Origin: Campylobacterota bacterium
GTDB lineage: Bacteria > Campylobacterota > Campylobacteria > Campylobacterales > Sulfurimonadaceae
Length of the DNA stretch: 51,028 nucleotides
Reading direction: 5' to 3'
NCBI GenBank assembly: GCA_034660715.1
Contig: JAYEJR010000151.1
Coordinates: 4,310 to 55,337, forward strand
In this document: one piece after another, positions 4,580 to 50,792 of the stretch
How the letters are laid out: each line of letters opens with the position of its first letter
Numbering within the stretch: the first letter of the stretch is position 1
Made by a program: the position numbers and the translations under genes
Notes under the pieces: model-generated
What the model was told of the DNA's origin: nothing
Database searches by the model: none
The model's input: the letters and a program-made list of their open reading frames with translations, nothing else

Positions 4580-5097
4580 TGCATCACTTCTTGTGCTATC
4601 TTTTCTTTCTCTTCTACTAAGTCTTCTAGAGAATCATAAACTAGTGTTTGCTCAAAGTAGGTTGTATAGTCATATACTTTTTCATTATAAGCAACTATCA
4701 TCTGTTGTGAAACTCCATTTTTCGATGTTTCAAAGGAGAAACATACACTCTCTTGAACATCTTCTTCATTAAAAAAGACTGGTTTTTTGCTCTCAACTAT
4801 GCCTTGAAGAGTATCGTAACGATACACCTCAACACTCTCATCAAAAAAGCTCTCTATTGTTGTCACCTTAGAACCATCCACATAAACTCCACATTCACTA
4901 CAATCATCCAGACATAAGAGTCTTGCACTTCTTGCATCATCTTTAGTAAAAGATATTAGGTACTCTTTTAGATTTTTAAAGCTTGGTGTGAACTTCTCTT
5001 CACCTACAGTTTTTAGTTTACTAACAGCAAGAGTATAGACAACTCCTATGATCATTATCACTATCATAAGTTCTATAAGAGAGAAGGCTTTTCGCAA
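4576..5097 (-). CDS. Prepilin-type N-terminal cleavage/methylation protein (GspH-like minor pseudopilin)
   Basis: KA|FSLIELMIVIMII prepilin motif; TTG start. Confidence 0.8.
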   Translation of the reverse strand: MRKAFSLIELMIVIMIIGVVYTLAVSKLKTVGEEKFTPSFKNLKEYLISFTKDDARSARLLCLDDCSECGVYVDGSKVTTIESFFDESVEVYRYDTLQGIVESKKPVFFNEEDVQESVCFSFETSKNGVSQQMIVAYNEKVYDYTTYFEQTLVYDSLEDLVEEKEKIAQEVMQ

Positions 5098-5102
5098 GTG
5101 AA

Positions 5103-5516
5103 CTACTTACACTCGCTCATTTTTATATCTTTAGACTCATCTTTACCGCCCTCTTTCTTGTCAGCAGCGAGTGAAATAAGCTCTATAGCTCCATCATCAT
5201 TGATATAGATAAACTCCTGACCCCATGAATCTTTTGGCATTTTTCCATCTTTAAAGTAAGAGTCATCCTCTGTTAAAAGTTTAAGTCCCTCTTCTGTTGA
5301 TGGATAGATACTATTTTTTATTTTGTACATATCAAGTGCACCGTTATAGATAGACTTCATTTGAACACATACTAAATCGCGTTTAGCCTCTTCACCCTTA
5401 CCAGTAAGACTTGGCATAACCATAGCTGCAAGCAACCCAAGTATAACGATAACTATCATAAGTTCTATAAGTGAGAACCCTTTTTTAAAACTTCTTTTTT
5501 GCATATTTTTTTGCAT
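5103..5516 (-). CDS. gspG: Type II secretion major pseudopilin G
   Basis: G|FSLIELMIVIVILGLLAA, YPSTEEGL, PKDSWG and ISLAADKKEGG...DI motifs. Confidence 0.92.
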   Translation of the reverse strand: MQKNMQKRSFKKGFSLIELMIVIVILGLLAAMVMPSLTGKGEEAKRDLVCVQMKSIYNGALDMYKIKNSIYPSTEEGLKLLTEDDSYFKDGKMPKDSWGQEFIYINDDGAIELISLAADKKEGGKDESKDIKMSECK

Positions 5517-6618: not shown

Positions 6619-9600
6619 TCAATATAAATAAAATGCTTGAGCGGCTTCTAGAGAAGTAAACATGTAGTTAATATCACCCATACTTTCTCCAGCACCTTCT
6701 ACTCTCTCACAATTATTGCTAGAGTTTAGTTGATAATAGTGACTTATCATAAAGTAAGGTTCCGATTCTATCATAAAGTCATATGTTTCACCCATACATT
6801 CACCTTGATAGCTTGTGGTTATTTTATTTCCATCGACGACATAGGTCACAGCAAATGTATTCCCAGCTTCTTCACCTTCAATACCTGTTATATTTACATC
6901 AGTTGCATTAATAACTTTAATCTCACTGATACTTCTAAATATATCACCATTATCATTTTTTTCGAAGTAAACTTCATATACTGTTCTACCTGTTAAGTCT
7001 CCATCTCCATAGTCAGCAGGTACATTTTGGGGATATGTAGCTACAGTACTAACTTCAAATGGTACATCAGACTCTTCGATACTTTGTAATTGAGTTGTAC
7101 GATCTCCTACTGTAGCTACTTCTGTTTTTCCTATACCTCTACAAAACACAGTGCTTTGTTCTTTGTTAGTTAACAGCTCTGCAGTTAAGACATTGTTGAT
7201 TCGTATACAGTCATTCGCAGTTCCATACGGAACTGTAATCCCTGTACTTACATCGACTAGAGTCATATTGTTCTCAAGTGATCCATCTACAGTTGTAGAG
7301 ATGTTACCATCTCTATAGAATGTCGTATTTGTTACATAGCTATACTCTTCGTTTAAAGTCATCTCTATTGGGCGTAAAACATACCCATCAGCAAATGTCC
7401 AGTTGCGTAAGACTGGTACTGTTCTATCTAATTCAGTGATTGCCCTATTTACTCCATCATAGTTTAAATCATAACTAATCACTGTTTTGCGATCAAGTTC
7501 ACCACCTATAAACTCCATTTTAGTTCTTGTAAGTTGACCTTCCACACTATAATCATTGTATTCTTCTATATAGTATGTTGGATCACTTGGATCTATAAAA
7601 ACTCTTTTGTTAAAAGCTTTTGATTTTTGGAAACTATAATCTGTAGTGTTTATTCGTGGCATAGCAACTGCTGGCGTAGATACCTGATGATCTATATCCA
7701 CAGAAAGTTCATAAAAGCTCAAACCATCCAACACACTTGCATCTACTGCTACTAAAGCATTCCACTCAGTTGTAAATGCACTAAACTCTTCACCAAAACG
7801 AATTTCATCCGTTATCGCATCTTTGTTTGCATCAAAATAGCTAATAAACTGAGTTTTTGCCGCTTCATTAAAGAAGTGTACAACTCCACCACTACCAGCT
7901 TCAAAGAAGTCACCATAGAGAATCTCTCCACCCTCTTCTACAAAAGCCATATTATATTTAGATTCATAGCCTTGGTAAGTTGGTTTTGTGACAAGAGCAC
8001 GTGTGAAATTATCTGTTGTACCGTTACCTATTATAATCTCGTATGTTCCAGCATTAGCATTAAGTACTCCTCCATTTGCATCTACAATGATAAGTTTTCC
8101 ATCGGCTCCAAATGCCAACCCACCATCTGTAAATCCATCGTTAGAATATATTTTACCACTTGAGCCATCATTAGCCGCTATCACTCCCTCAAGAGAAGTA
8201 AACTCACTACCAGTACCTGAAGACCAGTCTTTTGCAACTTCACCCCAAGTACTTACTTGGTCTGTAGTTCTTAGATATGCAAATTTATGTATCTCTGCAT
8301 CAGTAACAAAGCTTGATCCTTTTTCAGTGTTAAAATCCGCTATAGCCACTGTGCCCAAATATTTAATATTTGATACACCATTAAGAGTAATGGTAAAGTC
8401 TGCATTATACTCCGCATTATCTGGTCTACCAGAATTAGGATCAACTACATAATCTCCATTTTCATCGAGCATGTATTCTTCCCACCACCACTCTCTAACT
8501 TCATCTTCTGGAGAAAAGTTAGATATACTCATACCTCTTAACTCTAAAGATGCTACAAAGGTTTCTGTTACTGGTGGAGGGGTTGATGAACCATAAGCAT
8601 CCCCTTGAGTAAAATAAAATTTAGATGCAGAAATAGGATTCACTGTGTTCTCAACACTTACATAATTGTCTGATATCGCTAGTTCTAAAGTAAATACTCC
8701 ACCATTTGATAATGTAAATGTAACAGAATTACCTTCATATGTAACGGTTCCATTACCGTCATAATCACCATATTTATCAACTCCTGAATAAGTCATTACA
8801 GTTGCATCCGCATTAAAACTCCACTCTTCTGTTTTGTTTGGGTCATCTGGATTATTTTGTTCTGGATAAAGTTTCTTGTTACTCAAAAAGGCTTGAATTT
8901 GGTTAGCAGGTGTCAAGTCAGCTAATGCCTCCATAACATCATTAATACCTATAGCATTTAAAGATGGGTTATGAAACGGCTTAAATTCTTCACTTACTTC
9001 ATTAGCCCAACCTCTATACACAACAGGAGTTGCATCATCTGCCCCTTGATACATCGTCACAAATTGACCACTCTCATCTGCATAAGCTTCAGTAGTAATG
9101 TTAAAAAAGATTGCAAGTTGCGAAGTTCCTGGTAGCATTTTTGCTTCCCATGTTCCAGCTGTTCCTGCAGTTCCAACAAGTATCGTTTGTCCGTCAGAAG
9201 TGTTTGTAGGTTTTGACACCTGAGATAAAGAGCCACTTGAGCCTTCAACTAATGTTCCAGTAAATGGTTCTGCAATAGTAACACCACCATCTTCATCACC
9301 AACTACCCACCAGTTATCGCCTATCATGCTTCTATCGTTTTTTTCGATATATTTTTCTAATGATGCTATGACATCCATATTTCCTGCTTCGTTGTTAGCA
9401 TACTCAACACCATCAAGTTCATAACTTTCACTATTGTTTCTAAATGCAAACTGAGTTAACTTTGCACCCTCACTAAATGTCACATCACCAATCCCTTCGA
9501 TGCTTTTAGTATTTCCACTAATATCTTGAGAACTTACAATTTTAACTTCTGCATTATAAACAGGCACATTTAAAATTGTGTCATTGTCTGTCAATGTAAA

Positions 9601-12021
9601 CGAAGAAGCTGATTGAGTATCTCTAAGTATCCAAGAACCATCTTTTAAGACATATCTTACATCATCCGACTCTCTATCAACTAATCCGGAACTACCTATA
9701 TAGTAAACTTCGCGTTTATTTACAAAGTTCATATCTTCTCCAAAAAGACTACTATATAGCTTCACTCCAGGACCATTTCCATCTACATCTGAATCATACT
9801 CATACTCATACCATCCAGTAGGAAGAGTAAATTGTGTAGTTGGGTCAACTACAACTGGAATATTATCCACTTCATCTTTAATAGCTTTTGCTTCTTCAAG
9901 TAGTCCAGCAATGATAGCTGCTTGTGCAGTACCTGTTGCATAGAAACCCTCTAGTTTTATTTTTTGCGCATCTGCCGCATCTTTTGCTGCATTTGCCGCT
10001 GTTTCATTTACAGCTGTTAATGCGCTACTTGCATCTGAATAAGCTGAGTTAATTAATCCTAGTGATGTGCTTGCATCGTTATAAGCTTTAAGAGCTATCC
10101 CAGCTGAAGCATTTGCATCAGCAAATTTTGCTTGTGCATCTGAGTATAAAGGATTTCCCGCAATTGTTCCAATAGCCATCATATCTGCAGCAATCGCATC
10201 TCTAATTGTTGTCCCGCTATCATAAAGAGTTTGAGACGCATTTTTTGTGCCATTAACATCTGCTACGATAACTACAATTCTATCTATCTTCACTTGTAGT
10301 GCGACTTGAGCTGCCACTGCTAACTCTGCATCCGCTTTTACTTTATAAGCGTCTGCTAAAGCTGATGCCGCTACTGCTGCTTGTGTTGCTGCAACTTCTT
10401 TTTGCTCCAATGCAAAGCTTGAGTTACTGTCTGATAGTTCTGCCAACACCACTGCATCTTTTGCATCGCTAGCTGCATTTTCAGCTGTTGTTGCATTTCC
10501 TTCAGCTGCTGTATATATATTTGCAATCATACGTGTTTTATTTGCATCATTGTAGGCATTATTCATATGAAATCTTGCCATCTCAACATACATATTTTTC
10601 TGTGCTGTCTCAATAGCTGCTGCTGCATCTTGCTGAGCTTGTTCTACTGCTGCTTGTGCCTCTGCCAATGTTTTTTCTTGGTCAGCTGCCGCTAAGGCTG
10701 CTGCATCTGCCGCCGCTTGTCTTGCTGCCGCTGCGTCTGCTTCAGCTTGTGCTTGTGCTGCTGCAGCATTTGCATCAGCTTCTCTTTGAGCTGCCTCAGC
10801 TGCTATAGCGGCTTCTTCTTTGGCTGCTGCTACTGCTGCATTTGCTGCTGCTAAATCAGCTTCTGCTTTCTCTTTTGCCGCTTTTTCAGCCTCTGCTTGC
10901 GCTGCTAAGAATGCTTCATACTTTGCTCTATCTTCTGCATCCGCTTCTGCTGCTGCTTTTGCCGCTGCTAGATCAGCTTCAGCTTTTTCTTGAGCTTCTT
11001 TTGCTGCTACTATTTCAGCCTCTTTTTCTTGTTGTGCTTTTTGAAGAGCCTCTATAAGTGCGATCTTTTCAGATGTTAGCTTATCGGCTTCCACTTTTGC
11101 CGCTTCTGCTGCCGCTCTTAATTCAGCTTCTGCTGTTGTGTTTACTTTTGAGATAGCTGCATCAAGGTTTCCTGCTGCTTCAGCTGGTGTCCCATCTGAA
11201 ATAGCACCCTCTGCATTTTCAGCATCTCTTACTGAGTTTTCTGCAGATGTTTGTGCTACAACTTTTGCTGCGACTTTCGCTTGAGGATTCTCTTTGTATA
11301 CTTCATCTGCAGCTGCTTTTGTTGCAGCTGTTACTTTTTCTGCATCAAGTTCAACTTCACTAGTAGCTCCATCAAAATTTTCAACAATGGCATCAAAAAC
11401 ACTACTCATAGTTGAGTTTACATCAGTACCATCATCTGCACCCGCAACTGTTACTGTTGCCGAATGCACAAGAACTTGAAGTTGTGTCTGTTTTGCTAAA
11501 ACTGCTTGAGCATTTTCACTTACCTCGTTGTATGGGTCAAATGAAGTAAGGTTTACATCTACATTTGTTAAACCCATTGCTGCTTTTACATTTGCTTCTG
11601 CATCTTCTGCTGATTTCCCACCTTCAACGAGAGATTGGATTGCTGAAGTTAAAGGGGTAACTACACTTGAACCAGCTGGAGCTTTTAGTGAACCTGTAAA
11701 AGCTTGTCCTGTTGAGTTATCGACACCACCTACTAAAAGTAATGGTCCTGTAACTGTTGTTGCTGGAATCTCAAAGAGTCCTTTATCATCAGTTTTATCA
11801 AAAGGTTCGCCCTCGTCACATTTATTATTTGTTGGGTTACCATCTACACAAACTGTTGAACCAACTAAAATACCGTCAATTCCTATACCACTATATGTTT
11901 GTGCTACTGCTTTAGTGACTGGATCATCACTCCCTCCCCCTCCACTACTACATCCTGTTATCCCTAACAGTAGTGCTGTACTTAGTGATAACAGTGTAGT
12001 TCTTAAAGTAAACTTATTCAT
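6619..12021 (-). CDS. Very large surface lipoprotein (1800 aa) with an Ala/Glu-rich coiled-coil stalk and acidic beta-rich C-terminal domains
   Basis: Lipobox LLGITG|C with a Gly/Ser linker; N-domain GIDGILVGSTVCVD...CDEGEP; long Ala-rich helical run; SD aagga upstream. Confidence 0.85.
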   Translation of the reverse strand: MNKFTLRTTLLSLSTALLLGITGCSSGGGGSDDPVTKAVAQTYSGIGIDGILVGSTVCVDGNPTNNKCDEGEPFDKTDDKGLFEIPATTVTGPLLLVGGVDNSTGQAFTGSLKAPAGSSVVTPLTSAIQSLVEGGKSAEDAEANVKAAMGLTNVDVNLTSFDPYNEVSENAQAVLAKQTQLQVLVHSATVTVAGADDGTDVNSTMSSVFDAIVENFDGATSEVELDAEKVTAATKAAADEVYKENPQAKVAAKVVAQTSAENSVRDAENAEGAISDGTPAEAAGNLDAAISKVNTTAEAELRAAAEAAKVEADKLTSEKIALIEALQKAQQEKEAEIVAAKEAQEKAEADLAAAKAAAEADAEDRAKYEAFLAAQAEAEKAAKEKAEADLAAANAAVAAAKEEAAIAAEAAQREADANAAAAQAQAEADAAAARQAAADAAALAAADQEKTLAEAQAAVEQAQQDAAAAIETAQKNMYVEMARFHMNNAYNDANKTRMIANIYTAAEGNATTAENAASDAKDAVVLAELSDSNSSFALEQKEVAATQAAVAASALADAYKVKADAELAVAAQVALQVKIDRIVVIVADVNGTKNASQTLYDSGTTIRDAIAADMMAIGTIAGNPLYSDAQAKFADANASAGIALKAYNDASTSLGLINSAYSDASSALTAVNETAANAAKDAADAQKIKLEGFYATGTAQAAIIAGLLEEAKAIKDEVDNIPVVVDPTTQFTLPTGWYEYEYDSDVDGNGPGVKLYSSLFGEDMNFVNKREVYYIGSSGLVDRESDDVRYVLKDGSWILRDTQSASSFTLTDNDTILNVPVYNAEVKIVSSQDISGNTKSIEGIGDVTFSEGAKLTQFAFRNNSESYELDGVEYANNEAGNMDVIASLEKYIEKNDRSMIGDNWWVVGDEDGGVTIAEPFTGTLVEGSSGSLSQVSKPTNTSDGQTILVGTAGTAGTWEAKMLPGTSQLAIFFNITTEAYADESGQFVTMYQGADDATPVVYRGWANEVSEEFKPFHNPSLNAIGINDVMEALADLTPANQIQAFLSNKKLYPEQNNPDDPNKTEEWSFNADATVMTYSGVDKYGDYDGNGTVTYEGNSVTFTLSNGGVFTLELAISDNYVSVENTVNPISASKFYFTQGDAYGSSTPPPVTETFVASLELRGMSISNFSPEDEVREWWWEEYMLDENGDYVVDPNSGRPDNAEYNADFTITLNGVSNIKYLGTVAIADFNTEKGSSFVTDAEIHKFAYLRTTDQVSTWGEVAKDWSSGTGSEFTSLEGVIAANDGSSGKIYSNDGFTDGGLAFGADGKLIIVDANGGVLNANAGTYEIIIGNGTTDNFTRALVTKPTYQGYESKYNMAFVEEGGEILYGDFFEAGSGGVVHFFNEAAKTQFISYFDANKDAITDEIRFGEEFSAFTTEWNALVAVDASVLDGLSFYELSVDIDHQVSTPAVAMPRINTTDYSFQKSKAFNKRVFIDPSDPTYYIEEYNDYSVEGQLTRTKMEFIGGELDRKTVISYDLNYDGVNRAITELDRTVPVLRNWTFADGYVLRPIEMTLNEEYSYVTNTTFYRDGNISTTVDGSLENNMTLVDVSTGITVPYGTANDCIRINNVLTAELLTNKEQSTVFCRGIGKTEVATVGDRTTQLQSIEESDVPFEVSTVATYPQNVPADYGDGDLTGRTVYEVYFEKNDNGDIFRSISEIKVINATDVNITGIEGEEAGNTFAVTYVVDGNKITTSYQGECMGETYDFMIESEPYFMISHYYQLNSSNNCERVEGAGESMGDINYMFTSLEAAQAFYLY

Positions 12022-17759: not shown

Positions 17760-19418
17760 ATGAAGACTTTTTTACTACTTATAACTTTTGTTTTAACTCT
17801 AAACGCGACTACAATAGATGACAATGCACTCAAAAAAATGATAGGTCGTATGCTTGTCGTTGGATTTGACAGTGAGAAGATAGATGAAAACTCTCAAATC
17901 GTTCAAGATATGATAGAGTATTCGTTGGGTGGGGTTATACTCTTTGACAGAGATTATAAAGATAGAAACAGAACCAAAAACGTCTCTTCGCCCGCTCAAC
18001 TCAAAAAACTCACAAGCGACTTACAAAAGTTCACTAACAAACCTCTCTTTATAAGTGTTGACCAAGAGGGTGGCAAAGTGGCTCGGCTTAAGCCTAAGTA
18101 TGGGTTTTCTAAGATACCCTCGGCTCACAAAGTCTCAAGTATGAACCTAAAAGATGCACAAAACATCTATAAAACACAATCAAAAATGCTCCAAAATGCT
18201 GGAATAAATATGAACTTCGCCCCCGTTGTAGACCTCAACATAAATCCAAAAAACAGAGTTATAGTAGGACTTGAGCGCTCCTTTGGAAGCGATGTCTCTA
18301 AAGTAGTGGCGTTTAGCAAGACCATCATAGAAGAGCAAAGAGTCCACGGAGTTATCTCTGTTTTAAAACACTTCCCCGGTCATGGTTCATCTCTTGGTGA
18401 TTCGCACAAGGGCTTTGTAGATGTAAGCGAGACTTGGTCTAAAAAAGAGCTTGAACCATACAAAATCCTCATAGATAAAAATCAAGTAGAGATGATAATG
18501 ACTGCTCATGTTTTTAACTCTCACATAGATGACAAATACCCTGCAACACTCTCACACAAGTTCAACACAAAACTTCTTCGTCATGAGATGGGTTATGATG
18601 GTCTTATTATAAGTGATGACTTGCAGATGGGAGCTATCTCAAAACACTACTCATTAGAAGAGAGAACTGCTTTGGCTATAAACGCTGGCGTTGATATCTT
18701 ACTCTTTGGAAACCAGCTTGAAGATGTAAGTGTAAAAGAACTTGTAAACGCCATCTTCAAACAGGTGAAATCTGGAAAAATTTCACAAGAAAGAATCAAA
18801 GAGTCAAATGCTAGAATAGAAAACTTACATACTAGACACTCCATCATCCAAAAGCCCATCATCTTTACTGATAAACGCATGGACTTAACAAAAGAGTACA
18901 TTAAAGGGCATTATGGTTTGGATGTAAAAGATATAACTATTGAGCCAAAAACCATTGTCCTTCACTGGACTGCTGTCATGGACCTAGAGAAGAGTTTCCA
19001 GCGTTTAAACGCCGAACTTCTCTTTAGCGATAGAGCAGACATAGCAAAAGCTTCAGCCCTAAATGTTTCAGCACATTTTCTCGTTGACCGTGATGGAACT
19101 ATCTATCAGCTCATGCCAGACAACTGGATGGCTCGTCATGTCATAGGTCTGAACTACTCAAGTATAGGGGTTGAAAATGTCGGAGGAGAAGCAAATGCTA
19201 AGGAGGACTTAACACAGGCACAACTTGATGCTAACATCAGACTTGTTAAATACCTACAAGCAAAATACCCAAGCATAGAAAATGTTATAGGACATCATGA
19301 ATATAGAGAGTATGAAAACACTCCTCTTTGGTTGGAAAAAGATGCGGGCTATAGAACGGAAAAAGCCGACCCTGGAGATAAGTTTATGAATAATGTGAGA
19401 GATGCACTTGATAAATAG
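17760..19418 (+). CDS. nagZ: Secreted GH3 beta-N-acetylglucosaminidase (NagZ-like) fused to an Amidase_2 N-acetylmuramoyl-L-alanine amidase
   Basis: Signal peptide. GH3 motifs DQEGGKVAR, KHFPGHG, DSH, ISDDL. Zn amidase motifs IVLHWTA, SAHFLVDRDG, IGVENVG, IGHHE. Confidence 0.9.
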   Translation: MKTFLLLITFVLTLNATTIDDNALKKMIGRMLVVGFDSEKIDENSQIVQDMIEYSLGGVILFDRDYKDRNRTKNVSSPAQLKKLTSDLQKFTNKPLFISVDQEGGKVARLKPKYGFSKIPSAHKVSSMNLKDAQNIYKTQSKMLQNAGINMNFAPVVDLNINPKNRVIVGLERSFGSDVSKVVAFSKTIIEEQRVHGVISVLKHFPGHGSSLGDSHKGFVDVSETWSKKELEPYKILIDKNQVEMIMTAHVFNSHIDDKYPATLSHKFNTKLLRHEMGYDGLIISDDLQMGAISKHYSLEERTALAINAGVDILLFGNQLEDVSVKELVNAIFKQVKSGKISQERIKESNARIENLHTRHSIIQKPIIFTDKRMDLTKEYIKGHYGLDVKDITIEPKTIVLHWTAVMDLEKSFQRLNAELLFSDRADIAKASALNVSAHFLVDRDGTIYQLMPDNWMARHVIGLNYSSIGVENVGGEANAKEDLTQAQLDANIRLVKYLQAKYPSIENVIGHHEYREYENTPLWLEKDAGYRTEKADPGDKFMNNVRDALDK

Positions 19419-20892
19419 TACTTTTAGTTCTCTTGATTGGCTAGTTTTCCTAGCCTACTTTTGTGTTTTGGCGGGAAGCTCTTACTGGTTTTCTCGCTCT
19501 AAAATCACCTCTTCTCGTGAGTACTTCACCGCTTCAAACACCATGCCTACTCTGGCAGTTGCTATCTCCATTCTCGCTACTTCACAATCCGCTGCAACCT
19601 TTTTAGGAGTTCCTGAGTTCTCTTATGCTCATAACTTTACTCTTATAGGATTTTACTTCTCTTCTCTTTTAGCTGTCATATTTGTTGCTAAGTATTTTGT
19701 GCCTCGTTTTTATGAGATGAGAGCCATAACGGTTTATGAGCTTTTAGAAAAACGCTACGGTGCTTCGGCTAAACGCCAAGCAGGGGTTATGTTTCTCATA
19801 GGTCGCGTTATGGCGAGTGGAGCTAGACTCTACATCGCAGCACTTGCTATAAGCATGATACTTTTTTTAGATATCACGTTTGCACACATGATGGTTTCTA
19901 TCTTTATCTTAGTTTTTGGGGCCTTAGCATACACCTATTTTGGTGGTGTTAAGTCTGTCATACTCAGTGATGTCATTCAAGCCATCACTTATGTAAGTGC
20001 TGGTCTTGTTGTACTCTTTTACCTCTACACTTCACTAGAGGGTGTAGATATTGTAAGTGTTTTAAATGCTAACGATAAGCTAGTGTTTATGGATATGTCC
20101 TTAGATAGTAAGTTTAGTCTTATCGGGCTTCTAACAGGTTGGTTACTTCTAAACATCGCAGCATTTGGACTCGACCAAGACATGACACAGCGTGTTCTTA
20201 CTTGTAAGAACAAAGACGAGGCATCGCGTTCACTTATACTCTCTATACTTTTTACCATTCCCATCGTTTTACTCTTTTTAATCATCGGTGTTTTACTCTT
20301 TGTTCATTATGAACATACAGAAGTGCTACAGAGTTTTAACGGTGAAAAAATCACCATCTTTATGTACTACATCTTAAACGAAATGCCTGAGGGAATCCGT
20401 GGATTTGTAACTGTTGGAGCTATCGCTGCAGCACTCTCAAGCACAAACTCTGTTTTAGGAGCTATGGCTTCGGTGGCGGTTGAAGACCTCTACAAACCGT
20501 GGAAGCTCAAACAAACGCCAAACGCGGATGAGAAGCATTTCATAAAAGCTTCACGAAACGCTGTTTTACTCTTTGCTCTAGTTTTATCAGCCATGGCAAT
20601 TCTCTCTTACTTCTGGCAGAGATACTCCGATCTCTCACTCATAGGTTTTGCTCTTGGTGTCATGGCGTTTGCATACACAGGACTTCTTGGAGTTTTCTTT
20701 TCAGCCATCTTCACATCTAGAGGAAGTAGTAAAACTGTCCCTTTTGCTTTGGTTGGTGGTTTTCTCACTGTTCTCTTCTTTCAACCTTATACATTTGGTA
20801 TAACTATCGGGTTTGCTTGGCAGATAACTATAGGTACTTTGGTGGCGTTTGCTATAATGCAAACAAGTAGTCTCCACACTAAAGAGGTGTAA
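19402..20892 (+). CDS. Sodium:solute symporter (SSS family)
   Basis: Polytopic. SAATFLGVP, YELLEKRYG, GGVKSVILSDVIQ, DQDMTQR and AAALSS motifs. Confidence 0.92.
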   Translation: MHLINSTFSSLDWLVFLAYFCVLAGSSYWFSRSKITSSREYFTASNTMPTLAVAISILATSQSAATFLGVPEFSYAHNFTLIGFYFSSLLAVIFVAKYFVPRFYEMRAITVYELLEKRYGASAKRQAGVMFLIGRVMASGARLYIAALAISMILFLDITFAHMMVSIFILVFGALAYTYFGGVKSVILSDVIQAITYVSAGLVVLFYLYTSLEGVDIVSVLNANDKLVFMDMSLDSKFSLIGLLTGWLLLNIAAFGLDQDMTQRVLTCKNKDEASRSLILSILFTIPIVLLFLIIGVLLFVHYEHTEVLQSFNGEKITIFMYYILNEMPEGIRGFVTVGAIAAALSSTNSVLGAMASVAVEDLYKPWKLKQTPNADEKHFIKASRNAVLLFALVLSAMAILSYFWQRYSDLSLIGFALGVMAFAYTGLLGVFFSAIFTSRGSSKTVPFALVGGFLTVLFFQPYTFGITIGFAWQITIGTLVAFAIMQTSSLHTKEV

Positions 20893-20894
20893 GC

Positions 20895-21977
20895 ATGTCA
20901 GATCAGTTATATATAGGAGTGATGTCAGGCACAAGTATGGATGGGATAGACATAGCTCTATGTAAAATCGACTCAACTAAATGCGAACTAGTTTACTTTG
21001 AAGAGTACCCTTTTGATGCAAATCTCAAAAGAGAGATTTTAGAAATCATCCAAGGGAGTACAACTTTAACACAAGTAGGAACCATCAACAAAAAACTTGG
21101 GCTAGAGTTCGCCTATGCCCTCACAAGGTTTCTAAGAGAAAAAGAGTTAAACGCAAAAGATATAACAGCCATAGGCCTGCATGGTCAAACACTATGGCAT
21201 GAACCAGATGCAGAGTTTCCTTTCTCTATGCAGTTAGGTGATGCAAGCACTGTATATGCGAAAACAGGAATCAAAACCATTTATGATTTTAGAAGTCTTG
21301 ATGTCGCTCTTGGTGGTCAAGGTGCTCCTTTTGCTCCCGCATTTCATCAGTTTTTATTTAAAAGTCTTAAAAAGAGTGCTGTACTCAACATAGGTGGTAT
21401 GGCAAACATCACTCTTTTAGAAGAAAATCTAAGAGGCTGGGATACAGGATGTGGAAATGTCCTTCTAGATATGTGGATATCTAAATGTAAAAATGAGAAG
21501 TATGACAAAGATGGCTCATTTGCAAAAAGTGGAGAGATAAACAGAGACCTTTTAAACGCCATGCTCAATGATGAATACTTTAAAAAAACTCCTCCAAAAA
21601 GTACAGGACGAGAGTACTTTAATGAAGTTTGGCTTGCAAATCTTCTTCCTATATTTAATGTCATAAGTGATGAGGACATCCAAAGAACACTTCTCGAACT
21701 TACGGCTCAAAGCATCGCCAACGATGTTAAGAAAAGCGACATAGAACTCCTCATACTCTGTGGTGGTGGAGCGAAAAACAGCTTTTTAAGAGCGCGAATA
21801 GAAGAACTCTCTGGGACCTATGTAAAGACAAGTGATGAGATTGGTATCAAAGGTGATGCTCTTGAAGCTATGGCGTTTGCATGGCTCGCTTACAAAAGAG
21901 TCCATCAAAAAGAGGTAGATCTCAAGAGTGTCACTGGAGCTACAAAAAATGCACTACTAGGAGCGATATATGGATAG
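20895..21977 (+). CDS. anmK: Anhydro-N-acetylmuramic acid kinase
   Basis: GVMSGTSMDGID, HGQT, GGQGAP, NIGG and PPKSTGREYF motifs. Confidence 0.96.
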   Translation: MSDQLYIGVMSGTSMDGIDIALCKIDSTKCELVYFEEYPFDANLKREILEIIQGSTTLTQVGTINKKLGLEFAYALTRFLREKELNAKDITAIGLHGQTLWHEPDAEFPFSMQLGDASTVYAKTGIKTIYDFRSLDVALGGQGAPFAPAFHQFLFKSLKKSAVLNIGGMANITLLEENLRGWDTGCGNVLLDMWISKCKNEKYDKDGSFAKSGEINRDLLNAMLNDEYFKKTPPKSTGREYFNEVWLANLLPIFNVISDEDIQRTLLELTAQSIANDVKKSDIELLILCGGGAKNSFLRARIEELSGTYVKTSDEIGIKGDALEAMAFAWLAYKRVHQKEVDLKSVTGATKNALLGAIYG

Positions 21978-22911
21978 ACTCAAAACTTGGATAGCGACTA
22001 CACCCTACAGAGATTATGAGTTTAGTATCGCTTCTGCTGATGCGAGTTTTCGCTCTTACTACCGCCTAATAAAAGATGACAAAAGTTTCATCGTGATGGA
22101 CTCCTCTTTGGAGTTAGAGTCACTTTCCCCTTTTTTGAATGTAACTCACAGGCTCTTAAACGCCAAGGTAAAAGCTCCTTATATTTATGAGCAAAACACT
22201 ACTGATGGATACTTAATCATCGAAGACTTTGGAGCTAGACAACTTCTTGATGTACTAGAGAAAAGTAATTTTAAAAAGCACTACCATGGCGCCATGAATG
22301 AGATCATCAAAATGCAAAAGGCAGATGTCAAAGAGCTACCTCTTTATGACAAAGAGTTTTTACACTTTGAGATGGACTTGATGCAAGAGTGGTACTTAGA
22401 AAAAAAACTAAATACTGTACTCTCTCTGGAACAAAACAAGATGATAGAGAACACTCTAAACGCCATCTCCAATATAGTTTTAGAACAGCCTCAAGATGTC
22501 TTTGTTCATAGAGATTTTCACTCTCGAAACATCATGCTCACCCCAAAAGAAGAGATAGGAGTCATCGACTACCAAGATGCTATGAATGGGGCTATCACTT
22601 ATGACCTTGTTTCTCTACTAAAAGACTGTTATGTTGAGTTTGAGAGAGAAGATATAGAAGAACTTGCCTTGGCGTTTAGAGACAAAAAAGCTCTCTTAGT
22701 CGATGATGATCTCTTTTTAAAATGGTTTGATTTTATGGGGCTACAACGCCATATAAAAGTCCTCGGTATCTTCTCGCGTTTAGATCTTCGTGATGGCAAA
22801 GATGGCTACCTAAAAGATATTCCTTTAGTTTTAAAGTACACTATAGAAACAGCTTCAAGGTATGATGAGACAAAAGAGTTAGCTCTCTTTTTAAAAAGTG
22901 TAACATCATGA
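21970..22911 (+). CDS. amgK: Anomeric MurNAc/GlcNAc kinase (APH fold)
   Basis: DASFRSYYR, HRDFHSRN, IDYQDA, YDLVSLLKD and GLQRHIKVLGIF motifs; directly precedes murU. Confidence 0.9.
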   Translation: MDRLKTWIATTPYRDYEFSIASADASFRSYYRLIKDDKSFIVMDSSLELESLSPFLNVTHRLLNAKVKAPYIYEQNTTDGYLIIEDFGARQLLDVLEKSNFKKHYHGAMNEIIKMQKADVKELPLYDKEFLHFEMDLMQEWYLEKKLNTVLSLEQNKMIENTLNAISNIVLEQPQDVFVHRDFHSRNIMLTPKEEIGVIDYQDAMNGAITYDLVSLLKDCYVEFEREDIEELALAFRDKKALLVDDDLFLKWFDFMGLQRHIKVLGIFSRLDLRDGKDGYLKDIPLVLKYTIETASRYDETKELALFLKSVTS

Positions 22912-23564
22912 AGGCGATGATACTTTCAGCTGGTCGTGGTGAGAGAATGAGACCTCTTACTGACACCCTTCCAAAACCACTTTTAGAAGTTCATGATAAA
23001 CCACTTATAGTCTACCATATAGAGAAGTTAGCTGCTGCAGGGTTTACAGATATAGTCATCAACATCGCTCACTTAGGATACAAAATACCCGAGTCTCTTG
23101 GTGATGGTTCAGCATGGAACATCCAGATAAGCTACTCAGACGAGCAAGAAGAGGGAGCTTTAGAGTCAGCAGGTGGTATAAAAAAAGCACTACCACTTTT
23201 GGGAGATGAACCTTTTTTAGTTGTCAACGGAGATGTCTATTGTGAGTACAGTTTTGATGCTAACTTTAACTTAGAAGATAAACTTGCTCATCTTATTTTA
23301 GTCCCAAATCCAGAGCATAACCTCAAAGGTGATTTTGGTCTATCCGATGGTTTACTTCAAAACTCAGCCGATGATATGTATACATTTTCTGGTATAGGCT
23401 ACTACTCACCACTCCTTTTTAAAGATGTGGCGTTACAAAAAAGCCCACTCGCACCCCTTCTTCGTAAAGCTACTGAAGAAAACATGATAAGTGCTGAAGT
23501 GTTTAGAAATAGATGGCACGATATAGGAACTCCACAAAGATTAAAAGAGATAAATGATGATTAA
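22908..23564 (+). CDS. murU: MurNAc alpha-1-phosphate uridylyltransferase
   Basis: KAMILSAGRGERMRPLTDTLPKPLL, LVVNGDV, NPEHN.KGDF and WHDIGTPQRL motifs. Confidence 0.92.
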   Translation: MKAMILSAGRGERMRPLTDTLPKPLLEVHDKPLIVYHIEKLAAAGFTDIVINIAHLGYKIPESLGDGSAWNIQISYSDEQEEGALESAGGIKKALPLLGDEPFLVVNGDVYCEYSFDANFNLEDKLAHLILVPNPEHNLKGDFGLSDGLLQNSADDMYTFSGIGYYSPLLFKDVALQKSPLAPLLRKATEENMISAEVFRNRWHDIGTPQRLKEINDD

Positions 23565-24525
23565 ACTTATACTACTTATAGCACTAACAACTTTCGCCTC
23601 AGCAAAATATACTAACTGTACTTTTAAAAATCAGAACTACTCTGATGTCTGTAAAAGTGCTGTAAAAGGTGGTGTTTCCTACAAGTATGCAAACCAATTT
23701 CTCACCTCTTACTTCAAAACACAAAAGTTTGATGAGATAAGTTGGAAATACCTTCAGCCTAGTAAACTCGAACACCATCGCACACAAGAGAAAAAAGCAA
23801 ATAATGTACTTGTAAGTTACATCCCTAAAATGGTGCAAAATATGCAAGAGTACAAAGAGGTCTATGACTATGCTGAAAAAGAGTATGGGGTAAATCGTGA
23901 GATTATCGCAGCTATATTACTCAAAGAGACAAAACTAGGAGTCATACAACCAACTCATGATGCCTTTATAGTCTTTAACACTATGGTTGTTAGAACTAAA
24001 CCAAACTCTTCAAGAGAAAAGTGGCTCCTTAAGATGGGCAAAACAAACATGGCCTCTATCATCAAACACTGTTATAAAAAGAAAGTAAAACCTGAGCAGT
24101 GTAACCTTCCCTCTTCTTATGCTGGAGCAGTAGGTATACCCCAGTTTATGCCTAACAGTTTTATATATGCAAAAGCTTATAAGGGAGAAGTAGCAGACCT
24201 CACTAAAATGGAAGATGCAATAATCTCAGCAGCAAACTTTTTACATACAAAAGCTGGCTATGACACTCTTATAGACTGGGACTATATGGCAGATGTACCT
24301 AAGGTAGAAGCCCAGTGGTACGAATATGACTTCGCTAATGAAGATGCTTCTTTTGTTTATGAGACAAGTAAGAGTGGGAAAGTATACAACTGTTTTACAA
24401 AAGGTCGTGAAGATTTACAAGATATGAAAAAGTATACCAAAATGATTATGCGATATAACAACTCTTCAAATTATGCAGTAGGTGTTATGAGGCTAGCATA
24501 TGAGGCACACTGCAACCTCAACTAG
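23554..24525 (+). CDS. Lytic murein transglycosylase, MltB/SLT_2 family
   Basis: Signal peptide; catalytic I...ET; SYAGAVGIPQFMPNSF; YNNSSNYA. Confidence 0.88.
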   Translation: MMIKLILLIALTTFASAKYTNCTFKNQNYSDVCKSAVKGGVSYKYANQFLTSYFKTQKFDEISWKYLQPSKLEHHRTQEKKANNVLVSYIPKMVQNMQEYKEVYDYAEKEYGVNREIIAAILLKETKLGVIQPTHDAFIVFNTMVVRTKPNSSREKWLLKMGKTNMASIIKHCYKKKVKPEQCNLPSSYAGAVGIPQFMPNSFIYAKAYKGEVADLTKMEDAIISAANFLHTKAGYDTLIDWDYMADVPKVEAQWYEYDFANEDASFVYETSKSGKVYNCFTKGREDLQDMKKYTKMIMRYNNSSNYAVGVMRLAYEAHCNLN

Positions 24526-40595: not shown

Positions 40596-42626
40596 ATGCA
40601 AAATCATTTAAAAAGTTTAGTTTATGTAATCTTAACTCTATTAATATTGGCTTCTTGTTCCTCTGAAGATTCACCTAATGCAACAGCTGTTTTAATTGAG
40701 GATGCTTATGTGGAAAATACTTCTGCATTTAATAGTGGGGATACTATTTCACTAAAGTATGACTTAGTTTCGAGTGGAGACAACAAAAATATTGAAATCA
40801 TTTACTCACTTATCTCAACAGCTGCCAAGGAGAGTCAAACGGGTGATGAGGACAACCTAACAACTATCATTATTCCAGATATAGAGTATCATATTGGTGG
40901 AAATCAGCTAGATGTACAAACAGGTTTCAACAGCTATAATGCTAATGTAGTCTTGCCAATGGATATGCAAGAGGGCATGTACCAATTAGCCGTAAAACTA
41001 GATGGACAAAAGAGCCAAAAACTTGTGACATACCCCAACGGAAACATATTTCACGATGATGACTCTTCTTATATGGTAAGTAACGGAAATGTTCATCCTG
41101 ATTTAGTGATGCACACTTATGCACTAGATGAAGATGTTCTTTTACTGAGTAAAGATAAAAGCAATGTATTATCTTCAACTGTAAGTATTTCCTCTAAATA
41201 TTATGATTCTACAAACATACCTATTTCTGTTTGTATTGATATTAATGGAGATTGTAAAAGCGTAAATATTCTCTCTAGTGATGGAGTAGCTGAACCTGAG
41301 CATATAGTCGATGAATTGTATGGTTATGTAACTAACATCACATTAAACCTTGAGATACCGACAACTCTAACAAATGAGATTTTAGACGCTATAGAAAATG
41401 ATATATATACTACTAAAGTTTACACTCAAGTAGATAAAAATAATGTGATTGCCGAACAAGAAGATGATTCAAACAACCAAGTATCTACACCACTGACTCT
41501 TTATAATGTCGATAATGCTCCCTTGGTAAAAAGTGATGGTGTATTGATTGAATATAGTAAAAATTTCACTCTAGATAAGATGGGCAAAACTTCAGGTTCA
41601 ATGTTAACTATTAATTCTAAAGCTGGAGTTGAGATAGAAAAAACATATGCTTATACTCATGGGGACTTAAACTTAAAAATACTCTCAAAAGAGTTTAATT
41701 TTCTTCATATAGGGGTAGATGCAACCTTTATATACAACTCATTTGCAGATACTGGTGTGACTAGAAGATTTGAGTTTCTTGGATATACACTACAGGAGTA
41801 TAAAGATCTAAGAGATGATATAAAGAGTGGTATAAATGATTTTAATGATATTAAAAATGAAGTAAAATCTCTCCCAGAAAATTGGAATACCACAATGGAA
41901 GCTATAAATAAACTCGACCTGATTCAAATAGCTTCAGATGCTACTGAAGCAACTAAAGAAAAAATAAACTCTGCAAATCAAAAAAAGATAAATGCCCTCA
42001 TAAAAAGTAAACTCACGCTAGGCGCTCTTCGTAACTTTTCAACCATACAAAAAAAAGAGTATCAAGAGGAGTTTATGCTCTCAATAGTTCCAGTAACTGT
42101 TACAGCAGGTGCAGGTGGAGAGTATGGACTTAATCAAGATATCTCCTTACTTGGAATAACAGGGTTTGAAGTTTCAGTAGCACCTTTTGCAAATATAGGT
42201 GGTTTTGCAAGTGGTGGCGTTGGCATGCCTGGGTTTAGCGCAGGGGTAGAAGCTGCCTTTACTTTCATAGCTGAAGAACTTGCGGCAAGTGCTGACTTTC
42301 AACTATCGCTTCAAGGCGATGATACTAGTCTCTTCTTGCATGGAGAGTCAACACAACTCATTGACAATACTATAACTGGACCAAAAGGTAATATAGACTT
42401 ATATGCAGAGTATACTATTCCTAAAATATGTATTAAAAAGTGGAGACATTGTGTAGAGTGGCATTGGAATTTAAGTTGTAAAAAGTACCATACGACTAAA
42501 GTGCATTACCCCTGTGGAGTTGTAACGCATAAGCCTACAAAAAATATTTTCAGTTGGAAATCTTTTGAAACAACAAAAAATATTTTGGATAAAAATGAGC
42601 AAATTTTACAAGAGCAACTTTATTAA
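40596..42626 (+). CDS. Lipoprotein with Ig/CARDB-like N-terminal domains and a large amphipathic beta-sheet C-terminal region
   Basis: Lipobox LILAS|C from ATG 40596 (SD aagga); Gly-rich alternating strands VPVTVTAGAGGEYG, GGFASGGVG, SAGVEAAF; Cys/basic loop near the C-terminus. Confidence 0.75.
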   Translation: MQNHLKSLVYVILTLLILASCSSEDSPNATAVLIEDAYVENTSAFNSGDTISLKYDLVSSGDNKNIEIIYSLISTAAKESQTGDEDNLTTIIIPDIEYHIGGNQLDVQTGFNSYNANVVLPMDMQEGMYQLAVKLDGQKSQKLVTYPNGNIFHDDDSSYMVSNGNVHPDLVMHTYALDEDVLLLSKDKSNVLSSTVSISSKYYDSTNIPISVCIDINGDCKSVNILSSDGVAEPEHIVDELYGYVTNITLNLEIPTTLTNEILDAIENDIYTTKVYTQVDKNNVIAEQEDDSNNQVSTPLTLYNVDNAPLVKSDGVLIEYSKNFTLDKMGKTSGSMLTINSKAGVEIEKTYAYTHGDLNLKILSKEFNFLHIGVDATFIYNSFADTGVTRRFEFLGYTLQEYKDLRDDIKSGINDFNDIKNEVKSLPENWNTTMEAINKLDLIQIASDATEATKEKINSANQKKINALIKSKLTLGALRNFSTIQKKEYQEEFMLSIVPVTVTAGAGGEYGLNQDISLLGITGFEVSVAPFANIGGFASGGVGMPGFSAGVEAAFTFIAEELAASADFQLSLQGDDTSLFLHGESTQLIDNTITGPKGNIDLYAEYTIPKICIKKWRHCVEWHWNLSCKKYHTTKVHYPCGVVTHKPTKNIFSWKSFETTKNILDKNEQILQEQLY

Positions 42627-44392
42627 TGAGTAAGAAAACTCTTTATACACTTTTTCTCTCTCTTGCTATCTCTTTTGGTTTAATTTATCTTCTGAATCAA
42701 GATAGCGAACAAGTGCAATTTAACTTGAAAAAAGAGTCGATTAAGGTCTATGAACTTTACTATAACTCAAATATTTCCTTCAATGAATCAATTACAAAAA
42801 AAAATAGTATTGTTAGTCTTAACGCAGACCTCCATTTGAGAGTTTTTGATGTAAAGAAAGAGTATTCAATAGTTGGTTTTGAACTTTCAAATGTAGAGAT
42901 TCATTTTGACAATGAAATTCTTGAAAGAAAATTAGAAAAACTTTATAGTGAACTTATTTTTATTAAAATTGCTCATGATGGTAAGTTTATAGAGTTTATT
43001 CTCCCACGAAGTAGTGATGACTTAAAAGGTCTCTTAGAACTCTTCAGTCATTTTCAAGTAGTTTTAAAAGAGGATGATTTTTATCAAACTACTGAGAACT
43101 CTTTTAGAGGAGAATATATTTCTGATTACAAGTTAGCAAAAAACACTCTTTATAAATCTCGTATAACATATTTATCTACTTATAATGAGACACATCGATA
43201 TATATTTAAAAACTCAAAGAGTGAGGCAATAGTAGCTAAAGATGGTATTTGGTTAGATAATATAACTGTTACTGAAAGTGTTGTAGTAGAAAAAGAAGAT
43301 ATGCAAATGGCACAGAGTAAAACGACTCTTAACCTAAGTAAAATAGATAAAGCTCGAGATCATACTTTAAAAATATACACAGAAAATAGAGATATTGATG
43401 AAGTTATAAAAGAGTATAGAGAGAAAAAAGAGAATAATAAAAATCTAAGCTTTTGGGAAGAAGAAAAGAAAAGTTCACAAATACACTTTATAAGAGAGAA
43501 CAATATAACTTATGAAACACTCTTAGGTAAAGTCAGCAAATTCAGTAAGATTCAAGACTATCATGAGCTTTCAAAGTACCTTAGCCTTTATCCTAACTAT
43601 TCAAAAGAGATACTAAAAGTAGTTCAAAATGAGACAAGCTCTTTGAGTGCTGGTCTTATTAGTGCCTTACAGGATGCTGACACAAAGGAGTCAAAAGAAG
43701 TTCTAATTACAATTCTAAAAGATGAAAATATTTCCTCTCTAAATAGACAAAGGGCTTCCATCGCCTTAGGTGGGCTTGAAAATCCAGATGATGCCTCTAT
43801 CGAAGCGCTACAAGAAATTATGGGTAATCGAGAGAGTCAAGATGATTTATCTCTATCTAATAGTGCAATTCTTTCACTTGGCAGAGTAAGCAACAATTTG
43901 GACGAGCTAAAGTATGAAGAGGTTAAAAGCCAACTTGCAAATTTAATTCTCAATGGTGATGACGATAGCATTAAGAGAATTTCCATAATAGCTGCCGGTA
44001 ACTCTAATACAGAAGATTATTTTCAAGAGATTAAAGAGAGCTTTTATAGCGACTCAAATAGTGTCAAATTTGCCGCCATTGAGGTTTTAGCAAATATGAA
44101 GACTGATGAGTCAAAAGAGTTGTTGCTTCAAGGTTATGATGACTCTAACGACGAAAATGAAAAAATGAAAATTGTAAATTCATTATCTAGTCAAAAACTA
44201 GATGAAAATACAGTCTATAAGATGCAAAATGAGCTCCTTGAGAATCTAGGGTCAGAACTTAATGATGAAGTTATTAAGTACCTTTGTAAAAGCTCAGAAG
44301 AGTTCCCAAGCTCTAAACCTTATCTTGAAAAAGAGCTACCCTTACAAAATGATTCTTCTATGATAAAGCTTATTATTAAAGCTATAAGATAA
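42626..44392 (+). CDS. Membrane-anchored protein with an N-terminal beta domain and HEAT-like solenoid, resembling the vitellogenin/MTP lipid-transport N module
   Basis: TAATG coupling to the upstream gene; N-terminal TM; beta-rich to ~aa 240, then helical repeats (ASIALGG, AILSLG, IIAAGN, AAIEVLAN). Confidence 0.7.
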   Translation: MSKKTLYTLFLSLAISFGLIYLLNQDSEQVQFNLKKESIKVYELYYNSNISFNESITKKNSIVSLNADLHLRVFDVKKEYSIVGFELSNVEIHFDNEILERKLEKLYSELIFIKIAHDGKFIEFILPRSSDDLKGLLELFSHFQVVLKEDDFYQTTENSFRGEYISDYKLAKNTLYKSRITYLSTYNETHRYIFKNSKSEAIVAKDGIWLDNITVTESVVVEKEDMQMAQSKTTLNLSKIDKARDHTLKIYTENRDIDEVIKEYREKKENNKNLSFWEEEKKSSQIHFIRENNITYETLLGKVSKFSKIQDYHELSKYLSLYPNYSKEILKVVQNETSSLSAGLISALQDADTKESKEVLITILKDENISSLNRQRASIALGGLENPDDASIEALQEIMGNRESQDDLSLSNSAILSLGRVSNNLDELKYEEVKSQLANLILNGDDDSIKRISIIAAGNSNTEDYFQEIKESFYSDSNSVKFAAIEVLANMKTDESKELLLQGYDDSNDENEKMKIVNSLSSQKLDENTVYKMQNELLENLGSELNDEVIKYLCKSSEEFPSSKPYLEKELPLQNDSSMIKLIIKAIR

Positions 44393-49652: not shown

Positions 49653-50792
49653 ATGAAAAAAATCTTAAATTTAGCACTTGTGTCTGCAACTGCTTTGATG
49701 GTTATAGGTTGTGGTGACACTAATGATTCTAATGAGAAAGCTTATACACCGCCACCAGTCAAAAACAAAACTCTTGGTTCTCTTAAACGCGAGGTAAGTT
49801 ACTTAACAGACATTACCAATGGAATGTCTCTTTACACTTTTGATAAAGATACACTCTTCCCTACAACTACAAACTGCGATGCAGCTTGTCAAGCCATTTG
49901 GCCTATTTTTACTGGTTCAAACACTGCGAGTACGGATATAACTGTATTTGATACAAACACTAGTCACTTAGCTTACAGACAACATCCTATGTACTTTTTT
50001 AAAAATGATGCAGTAGTTGGTGATGTAAACGGAGACAATGTAAAAGATGTATGGCACCTCATCTATGCACCTGCTGGTTCAAACGATACTCAGACTAAGT
50101 TCTCTAGCTCTGCAAACAGTATGACTCAAACATTTTTAACAGGTAAAGATGGTATGTCTCTTTATACTTTTGATAAAGATGACATTAATGAGAGTGTCTG
50201 TTATGGAACTCCCGATACGATGCCACTTGGAAGTTGTGAAGCTAGATGGCCAGTCTTTTATACTACGGACTTTACAAACTTACCAGAGGGAACAGAGGCC
50301 TCTGACTTTGGTACGATAGATAGAAACCTAACAAAAGCACTTAAAGATGACAATGGCGAACCTCTAGCGACAAAACAGACAACTTACAAAGGTTTACCTC
50401 TTTACTACTGGTTCCAAGACTCTAAGGCTGGCGATGTTACCGGTGACTGGGTAGGTGGTGTTTGGCACCTCATAGAACTCTCTGCACAGAAGACTTCATC
50501 AATCACTCCTTCACCTTATACTGCCGCAGCCGCTACTGCTGGAGAAGCTATCTTCACAGACCCCGCAAAATGTTCAAGCTGTCATGGTGCAGATGGTCAA
50601 ACGCCACCGCTTGGAGTTGACAATGTAATAGCTAAGTATGGCGACGCAGCGTTAATAGAGCAAAAACTTCGCGATATGAGAGACAACGGAAATCCTAACA
50701 ATAGACACTCTGCAATGGTGAATGTAGCAGGTGGGTTGTCAGATACAGCTATCACAAACCTTAGTGCTTTTGTCGCTACTTTAAAAAAGTAA
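49653..50792 (+). CDS. Lipoprotein with COG4315/Lipoprotein_15 repeats fused to a C-terminal c-type cytochrome
   Basis: Lipobox VIG|C; GMSLYTFDKD twice, MYFFKND, LYYWFQD; CSSCH heme motif with a distal Met. Confidence 0.85.
   Translation: MKKILNLALVSATALMVIGCGDTNDSNEKAYTPPPVKNKTLGSLKREVSYLTDITNGMSLYTFDKDTLFPTTTNCDAACQAIWPIFTGSNTASTDITVFDTNTSHLAYRQHPMYFFKNDAVVGDVNGDNVKDVWHLIYAPAGSNDTQTKFSSSANSMTQTFLTGKDGMSLYTFDKDDINESVCYGTPDTMPLGSCEARWPVFYTTDFTNLPEGTEASDFGTIDRNLTKALKDDNGEPLATKQTTYKGLPLYYWFQDSKAGDVTGDWVGGVWHLIELSAQKTSSITPSPYTAAAATAGEAIFTDPAKCSSCHGADGQTPPLGVDNVIAKYGDAALIEQKLRDMRDNGNPNNRHSAMVNVAGGLSDTAITNLSAFVATLKK

Follow-up and report, generated by a model that had tools for sequence, protein, structure and literature searches.

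Do bacteria possess a counterpart of the large lipid transfer proteins (LLTPs), the proteins that include MTP, vitellogenin and apoB? The question is raised by two adjoining genes, here referred to as gene A and gene B, in a stretch of 51,028 nucleotides from a Campylobacterota bacterium of the Sulfurimonadaceae (assembly GCA_034660715.1, contig JAYEJR010000151.1, positions 4,310 to 55,337; this whole stretch is called the window). An original prediction, made from the letters of the DNA, had proposed that the two products assemble into one LLTP-like particle. Our results show that protein B is almost certainly homologous to the front half of an LLTP, with the barrel and the solenoid and not HEAT repeats only, and the structure models indicate that the strand-rich tail of protein A very probably corresponds to the back half. 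The two proteins quite likely bind each other as a putative complex, and we lean, by a small degree, towards a stable unit that binds lipid and passes it on. The features of the pair are given below in window positions.

40596-42626, plus strand: gene A, predicted lipoprotein of 676 amino acids (aa) with a lipid anchor, an immunoglobulin (Ig)-like stalk and an LLTP-like C-sheet/A-sheet domain.
40596-40658, plus strand: lipoprotein signal peptide of A ending at Cys21, from the lipobox sequence.
40659-41528, plus strand: Ig-like (CARDB-type) stalk of A, residues 22-311, from family evidence, with no model of the stalk.
41541-41810, plus strand: six amphipathic strands of A of 8-15 aa, residues 316-405, predicted equivalent of the MTP C-sheet.
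42036-42617, plus strand: long amphipathic Gly/Ala-rich strands of A (up to 28 aa), residues 481-674, predicted equivalent of the MTP A-sheet.
42423-42518, plus strand: Trp/Lys-rich hairpin of A with four Cys, residues 610-641, from alignment and model.
42626-44392, plus strand: gene B, 588 aa, Vitellogenin_N-type barrel and helical solenoid.
42626-42694, plus strand: hydrophobic helix of B, residues 1-23 (helix 3-23), from hydropathy and reading by eye.
42740-43345, plus strand: half beta-barrel (N-sheet) of B around helices, residues 39-240, from the AlphaFold2 model and structure alignment.
43511-44389, plus strand: solenoid of B with 18 predicted helices, residues 296-588, from the AlphaFold2 model.

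The stop of gene A and the start of gene B overlap by one base (TAATG), and the coordinates, this overlap and the export signals found in both proteins bear out the description of two overlapping envelope genes. The eight peptides that had been quoted from B are all present and in the order given (at residues 132, 155, 213, 230, 344, 380, 414 and 454), and the layout proposed for B, an N-terminal anchor, a beta domain and a solenoid after which the protein ends, agrees with the AlphaFold2 model. This model was built from 38 sequences, reached a predicted local distance difference test score (pLDDT) of 91 and has nothing after the solenoid. It predicts the N-terminal half beta-barrel around a helix and the following superhelix of about 17 helices that are typical of LLTPs, with 18 helices in B; the superhelix of MTP has 17 according to PMC6717300.

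Sequence searches of the PDB were uninformative for both proteins, the matches of B being artificial alphaRep/HEAT proteins only and A having no match better than E 0.65, so that a comparison of folds was needed. Among the Pfam families, Vitellogenin_N (PF01347), which the original prediction had named as a check, matched B narrowly above its curated cut-off (25.2 against 24 bits, profile positions 214-541 of 590), and HEAT_2 was also matched. In the Foldseek search with the B model, MTP, apoB, lipovitellin and bee vitellogenin supplied all ten of the best PDB chains, with alignments of about 590-730 columns; the best match reached E 9.5e-17 (about 630 columns), and generic repeat proteins appeared in the list only from E 6.5e-7 on. 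VIA-align placed B residues 29-579 on MTP 23-615 (512 residues, Z 18.2, root-mean-square deviation (rmsd) 7.9), and the ESM Atlas gave a structure match to an MTP cluster with a template modelling score (TM) of 0.63. The nearest look-alikes in that atlas, with scores of 0.96-0.97, are clusters from bacteria that carry the labels HEAT and Vitellogenin_N and measure 520-650 aa. Since both the barrel and the solenoid match LLTPs, B does not belong to the case in which generic HEAT hits alone are obtained.

For the end of A, about 300 aa of Gly-rich amphipathic strands had been proposed. The amphipathic character stood, while the length is corrected to about 365 aa (residues 312-676, including a helical insert at about 407-470 that is lineage-specific and present in few family members), and the Gly enrichment lies mainly at 478-612 (12.6%, compared with 4.5% in the N-terminal part). 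Hydrophobic and polar residues alternate more than expected by chance in sheet 1 (contrast 2.59 against a shuffle mean of 0.98, reached by 0 of 5000 shuffles) and also in sheet 2 (1.78 against 0.93, reached by 2 of 5000); the barrel strands of B, taken as a control, have no excess (690 of 5000 shuffles). On both sheets the hydrophobic face is kept in 118 sequences at about 20-25% identity. The AlphaFold2 model of residues 312-676, built from 118 sequences (pLDDT 88), has two amphipathic sheets, with a predicted C-sheet of six strands and then an A-sheet whose strands are about twice as long, both with hydrophobic faces as in LLTPs. PMC6717300 describes the lipid domain of MTP in the same terms: it begins at residue 604 and has six short strands, the C-sheet, and six strands of double that length, the A-sheet.

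With this model, the best four Foldseek matches were MTP (three chains) and lipovitellin at E 4e-4 to 1.6e-3, and the next match had E 2.6e-2. The comparison with MTP and lipovitellin that had been suggested for the pair thus came out in its favour, LLTPs filling ranks 1-10 for B and 1-4 for A. A second structure search, independent of Foldseek and covering 48,161 chains, placed 9kue_D first (Z 8.8, 78 residues, one sheet) and MTP 613-877 second (Z 8.0, 212 residues, rmsd 4.0), and bee vitellogenin 776-1123 reached Z 6.8; a further alignment to 6i7s gave Z 8.7 over 237 residues with rmsd 4.5. The assignment of the A tail draws its weight from this rank, from the low rmsd over both sheets and from the way the two proteins meet on MTP, A beginning where B ends: in the models, they tile MTP end to end, B on 23-615 and A on 613-877. 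From the long sheet of the model protrudes a Trp/Lys-rich, disulfide-closed hairpin, possibly a tip that touches the membrane; in 118 sequences its Cys612 is conserved in 85% and its Cys640 in 81%. A profile search with the tail found 1273 clusters at E<=0.001, and the library scan assigned no Pfam or NCBIfam family to gene A; a family of at least 1273 clusters without a Pfam entry would thereby gain a predicted fold and a partner. One match on the helical insert, to a lipase secretion chaperone, was rejected as noise (E 0.006; 15.7 bits, the cut-off being 542).

How are the two proteins held in the envelope? The lipobox Cys of A is invariant (7 of 7), and a lipobox-like start is present in 90 of 153 A-family proteins. 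In E. coli the residue after this Cys decides where a lipoprotein is sorted (the +2 rule), so the Ser after Cys21 predicts sorting of A to the outer membrane; LolA is encoded in the host genome. The lipobox thus supports the proposed lipoprotein, and its Ig-like domains are indicated by family evidence, with CARDB matches in the N-terminal part of 34 of 72 members at E<=0.5 (best 1.2e-8), A itself contributing a weak PxKF match (E 0.083). Residues 1-23 of B have no obvious cleavage site and are likely, from their sequence, an inner-membrane signal anchor. Read by eye, the B N-terminus looks uncleaved here and in most lineages, and the relatives in Pseudoalteromonas and Vibrio have apparently cleavable signal peptides; one membrane-anchored and one lipid-anchored subunit are therefore predicted for this pair and do not form a general rule.

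The co-occurrence of the genes was examined in several sets of genomes. Among 100 relatives scanned, B was matched in 7 and A in 5, and B was matched in 4 of 400 genomes of the host's phylum. Before counting, G072 (two stops), G294 (a broken or HEAT-only type match) and one repeat were dropped, which left 8 genomes; G078 and G684, with only the N-terminal part of A, and 14 HEAT-only loci were also dropped. In all 8 remaining genomes the A-type gene ends between 4 bases inside B and 13 bases before B; in G058 the contig runs out within the A gene (E 1e-7). With six A relatives as seeds, a scan gave 37 loci, of which 30 are in Pseudoalteromonas and the rest in Grimontia, Motilimonas, Alteromonadaceae (2), Vibrio and Deferribacterales (2). 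B adjoins A in all 37 and is downstream in 36, the sole locus with B upstream being that of Vibrio sp. RE86 (L055:5286-8878). Searching 401 genomes of Grimontia's phylum with B returned 7 full-length loci in 6 genomes, one of them the seed genome, each with an adjoining A, which in four of them is part of a lipoprotein of about 4000 aa. A search of these genomes with A recovered those 6 genomes and 7 loci and, in addition, a single match to the N-terminal part. For the phylum of the Deferribacterales (68 genomes), A is upstream in 8 of 8 full-length B loci. Overall, full-length B has an adjoining A in 23 of 23 cases from three phylum-level groups, and A was found within the 1.5-kb flanks of none of the 14 HEAT-only matches; the check on gene-pair co-occurrence across bacteria supports co-location of the two genes.

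The trees of A and B, made from 37 chosen pairs, are also alike, with a patristic correlation of 0.89 (shuffle maximum 0.28). Of 26 supported splits, 21 occur in both, and the pairs of G594, a genome with two of them, are placed in the same two distant clades in either tree. Linkage and matching trees mean that A and B travel as a unit, from which contact between the proteins does not follow. No fused A-B protein was found, the B profile matching 0 of 153 A-family proteins (the best-scoring part of the 1273 clusters). The pair has a patchy distribution and belongs to the accessory equipment of the envelope, not to its core machinery; a word-indexed protein search returned only 3 B and 7 A proteins, a strong underestimate of both families. 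Some genomes carry several copies, with three separate pairs in G900 (L070, L083, L085) and two in G594 (L059, L066). The Pseudoalteromonas carriers with a species name (L021-L050) are mostly rubra, luteoviolacea, phenolica and piscicida, which we take to be pigmented, bioactive species; the query is biased to this clade and non-carriers were uncounted.

Clues to function come from the domains joined to A. An alpha/beta hydrolase follows the sheets directly in G007 and G251 (L013:4020-7847 and L019:5385-9197) and in the representatives P0011 (nearly the G007 protein), P0031 and P0033. It matches PGAP1/DUF676 in Pfam, the four proteins aligned all have intact Ser, Asp and His motifs, and its best PDB matches are mostly bacterial lipases, although weak (E 0.007-0.06). 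Of the clues in the sequences, this fusion hints most directly at a lipid substrate. After the fused hydrolase, and directly after the sheets in P0035 and P0045, comes another domain of about 130 aa, presumably beta-gamma-crystallin-like. PA14, LamG, hemopexin, BACON, SLH, beta-helix or LRR domains are present in other members and suggest a role on the cell surface or outside the cell; of 40 selected A proteins, 17 gave a domain match at E<=1e-4. The A domain is also found inside lipoproteins of about 2900-4100 aa (L086-L089 in G641, G657, G513 and G569, and G594:C10), with B directly downstream, and the one scanned (L087) has LamG, PD40, PA14, Ig and TSP3 domains. Lone hydrolases (clostripain C11, M6 peptidase, DUF900 and tannase-like) stand near the pair at L012:9667-11988, L013:9440-10744, L010:12414-13526 and L050:4158-6350 and are not conserved. 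The host genome, which is 82% complete, has two FadL-family genes, two MlaD genes and the LolA gene mentioned above; acyl-CoA dehydrogenase was not found in it, so lipid scavenging, one of the roles first proposed, is unlikely to serve for energy in this host. Reuse of scavenged lipid in membranes is possible.

The nearest of the described carriers is the large subunit of MTP (6i7s, 8eoj), and a module that works like MTP is likely, as far as the models go. The predicted arrangement of barrel, solenoid, C-sheet and A-sheet is the same, the total size is similar, and both systems are exported to an oxidising compartment. They differ in that A and B are two genes, usually with the back half first, have membrane anchors and an Ig stalk, have 7-14% identity to MTP, lack the barrel disulfide in B and have no conserved PDI-like neighbour. 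MTP proper is an obligate heterodimer with PDI and loads apoB; no thioredoxin-like gene was present among the 36 neighbours scanned, and an unlinked partner was not looked for. With vitellogenin and lipovitellin (1lsh, 9enr, 9ens) the likeness extends to B (TM 0.61 to 1lsh) and to A, which can be aligned with residues 776-1123 of bee vitellogenin and with DBXN, a pigment carrier derived from vitellogenin (107-residue chain of 9kue); the pair is much smaller, however, and has no VWD or CTCK domain that we could see, and the small sheets of A suggest an MTP-sized pocket rather than a yolk-sized funnel. As described in PMC12167979, 9kue is a processed vitellogenin whose sheets enclose a cavity with phosphatidylcholine, bilin and lutein. 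The beta-alpha1 region of apoB-100 (9bd1, 9e9r) is matched by B at E 1e-11 to 2e-9, but with a TM of only 0.33-0.36, and the pair has no long amphipathic belt.

Taken together, the four LLTP subdomains are spread over two genes and not united in one polypeptide, and without a single chain and a barrel disulfide the pair is not a member of any described LLTP family. Automatic Vitellogenin_N labels on bacterial B-type proteins are already known, the look-alikes of B under HEAT repeat / Vitellogenin_N being commonest in Bacteroidota, Bdellovibrionota, Myxococcota and Pseudomonadota, but these entries are labels with no partner gene or function attached. In agreement with the original prediction, no bacterial LLTP is described in the literature that we searched, in which subscription journals are poorly covered.

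We propose that A and B would assemble in the cell envelope into a stable two-chain, MTP-like unit. The two amphipathic sheets of A would enclose a narrow hydrophobic pocket, clamped by the barrel and solenoid of B, and the unit would extract a small number of hydrophobic molecules, lipids or others, from a membrane that it probably contacts through the Trp/Lys-rich disulfide hairpin. The cargo would then go to a second membrane or to an enzyme joined to the unit, for instance the lipase that is fused to A in certain relatives, and the variable additions to A (lectin-like, hemopexin, BACON, SLH, lipase) may choose the target.

Several observations weigh against this proposal. On the side of B, of 38 relatives only 7 match Vitellogenin_N at E<=0.01, generic HEAT proteins exceed the Z of MTP on the solenoid alone (20.4), and the single Cys of B (554) leaves it without the barrel disulfide that MTP (C174-C194), lipovitellin and apoB have in common according to PMC6717300. 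On the side of A, the likeness to MTP is structural only and middling, with Foldseek TM of 0.21-0.31, identity of 7-9% and Z of 8-9, where the search tool gives a best Z of 7-8 as typical for models without a clear match; BtuB ties at Z 8.0, though with rmsd 15.6. MTP_lip_bd (PF19444) and Vit_open_b-sht (PF09172) were not among the 25 of 32 families listed for 72 members of the A family (E<=0.5). Gene linkage alone is sufficient for matching trees, and the predominance of Pseudoalteromonas (30 of 37 loci) means that the loci are not independent. No transporter or other third gene was conserved beside the pair in the 36 of 46 picked neighbours that were scanned, lipase fusions are rare (3 of 153) and are probably one event, and an inner-membrane anchor of B is hard to reconcile with A partners of 4000 aa rich in surface domains.

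Some of these points would suit another division of labour, in which B is a dedicated membrane-anchored chaperone or loader that holds the sheets of A only during folding and export, and A then acts at the surface without B. Lipase foldases serve lipases in such a way, and MTP serves apoB. The anchor of B often looks uncleaved and its size rarely varies (509-675 aa), A carries PA14, LamG, hemopexin, BACON, SLH and beta-helix domains and grows to about 4000 aa, and a private chaperone would fit the one-to-one linkage and the matching trees equally well. Nevertheless, the same contact is permanent and structural in MTP and vitellogenin according to PMC6717300 and PMC12214520, and the cleavable-looking B proteins of Pseudoalteromonas and Vibrio could travel with A, and we regard this explanation as rather unlikely. 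We also consider it unlikely that the heterodimer is a scaffold displaying adhesin or enzyme domains, or a store of a hydrophobic small molecule such as a pigment, without lipid transfer between membranes. The wide variety of fused domains, the lack of a linked transporter and the known role of a processed vitellogenin as pigment carrier (PMC12167979) speak for it, while the hydrophobic face conserved on both sheets in 118 sequences and the lipase fusions, which point to lipid substrates, speak for transfer.

The tail of A could finally be an outer-membrane barrel or an oligomeric pore-forming sheet, the likeness to MTP then being that of any long curved amphipathic sheet. The alternating strands, and the barrels and MACPF proteins in the lower ranks (Z up to 8.0), agree with this; but a barrel can be fitted only with an rmsd of 9-20 or to a single sheet, and the fit to MTP takes in both sheets with an rmsd of 4-4.5. 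The tail does not show a closed C-terminal barrel with an aromatic last residue: more than 100 aa lie beyond the domain in 14 of 153 proteins, and F, W or Y is the last residue in only 32 of 130 others. The partner, moreover, is always an LLTP front half, and a barrel or pore is very unlikely in our judgement. Our preferred reading remains the stable two-chain lipid carrier, at the modest strength given at the outset.

If a two-chain LLTP is indeed widespread in bacteria, the account of the origin of MTP, apoB and vitellogenin would have to be revised, and a new class of candidate lipid-handling proteins would be added to the Gram-negative envelope. LLTPs are still presented in 2025 as animal proteins whose emergence is tied to multicellularity, in PMC12214520. 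The models suggest that a design regarded as an invention of animals is probably present in bacteria as well, divided into a front half and a back half. It is conceivable, though doubtful, that the two-gene module is both a working bacterial lipid-transfer machine and the source of the animal LLTPs, through fusion of a B-type to an A-type protein at about MTP 604-615, and that with B in the inner and A in the outer membrane it could be a new periplasmic shuttle. In most bacterial loci, though, A comes before B, the reverse of the order in the fused animal chain; the B-then-A order that an animal-type fusion needs was present in 1 of 37 loci, that of Vibrio sp. RE86. The culturable carriers Pseudoalteromonas rubra and P. 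luteoviolacea make the module directly testable, and it could serve as a small MTP-like model expressible in bacteria.

In the window, the pair is flanked by a MutY-type glycosylase gene and a PIF1-type helicase gene on the opposite strand. Its GC content is 32.5% against 35.1% for the genome, and 9% of genome windows are equally low, so that a recent transfer of the pair into this genome was rejected, the deviation not being significant. A scan for promoters and terminators was uninformative (18 promoter-like sites against 17.5 expected, and 0 terminators). No RNA data set with the pair was listed, a result that speaks neither for nor against expression, and the three DNA data sets that contain it in full may be those from which the window came. 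Elsewhere in the window, positions 1-5516 (minus strand) contain a gene run that we take to be a type II secretion cluster (pseudopilins, GspF/K/L/M), and positions 6619-12021 (minus strand) encode a lipoprotein of 1800 aa that contains a coiled stretch rich in Ala and Glu and has no Pfam match at E<=1e-8. A peptidoglycan-recycling cluster lies at 17760-24525 (plus strand), with a GH3-Amidase_2 fusion, a sodium:solute symporter, AnmK, an APH-type kinase, a nucleotidyl transferase and an SLT transglycosylase. At 49653-50792 (plus strand), a Lipoprotein_15 repeat lipoprotein ends with a cytochrome-c-like CxxCH motif.

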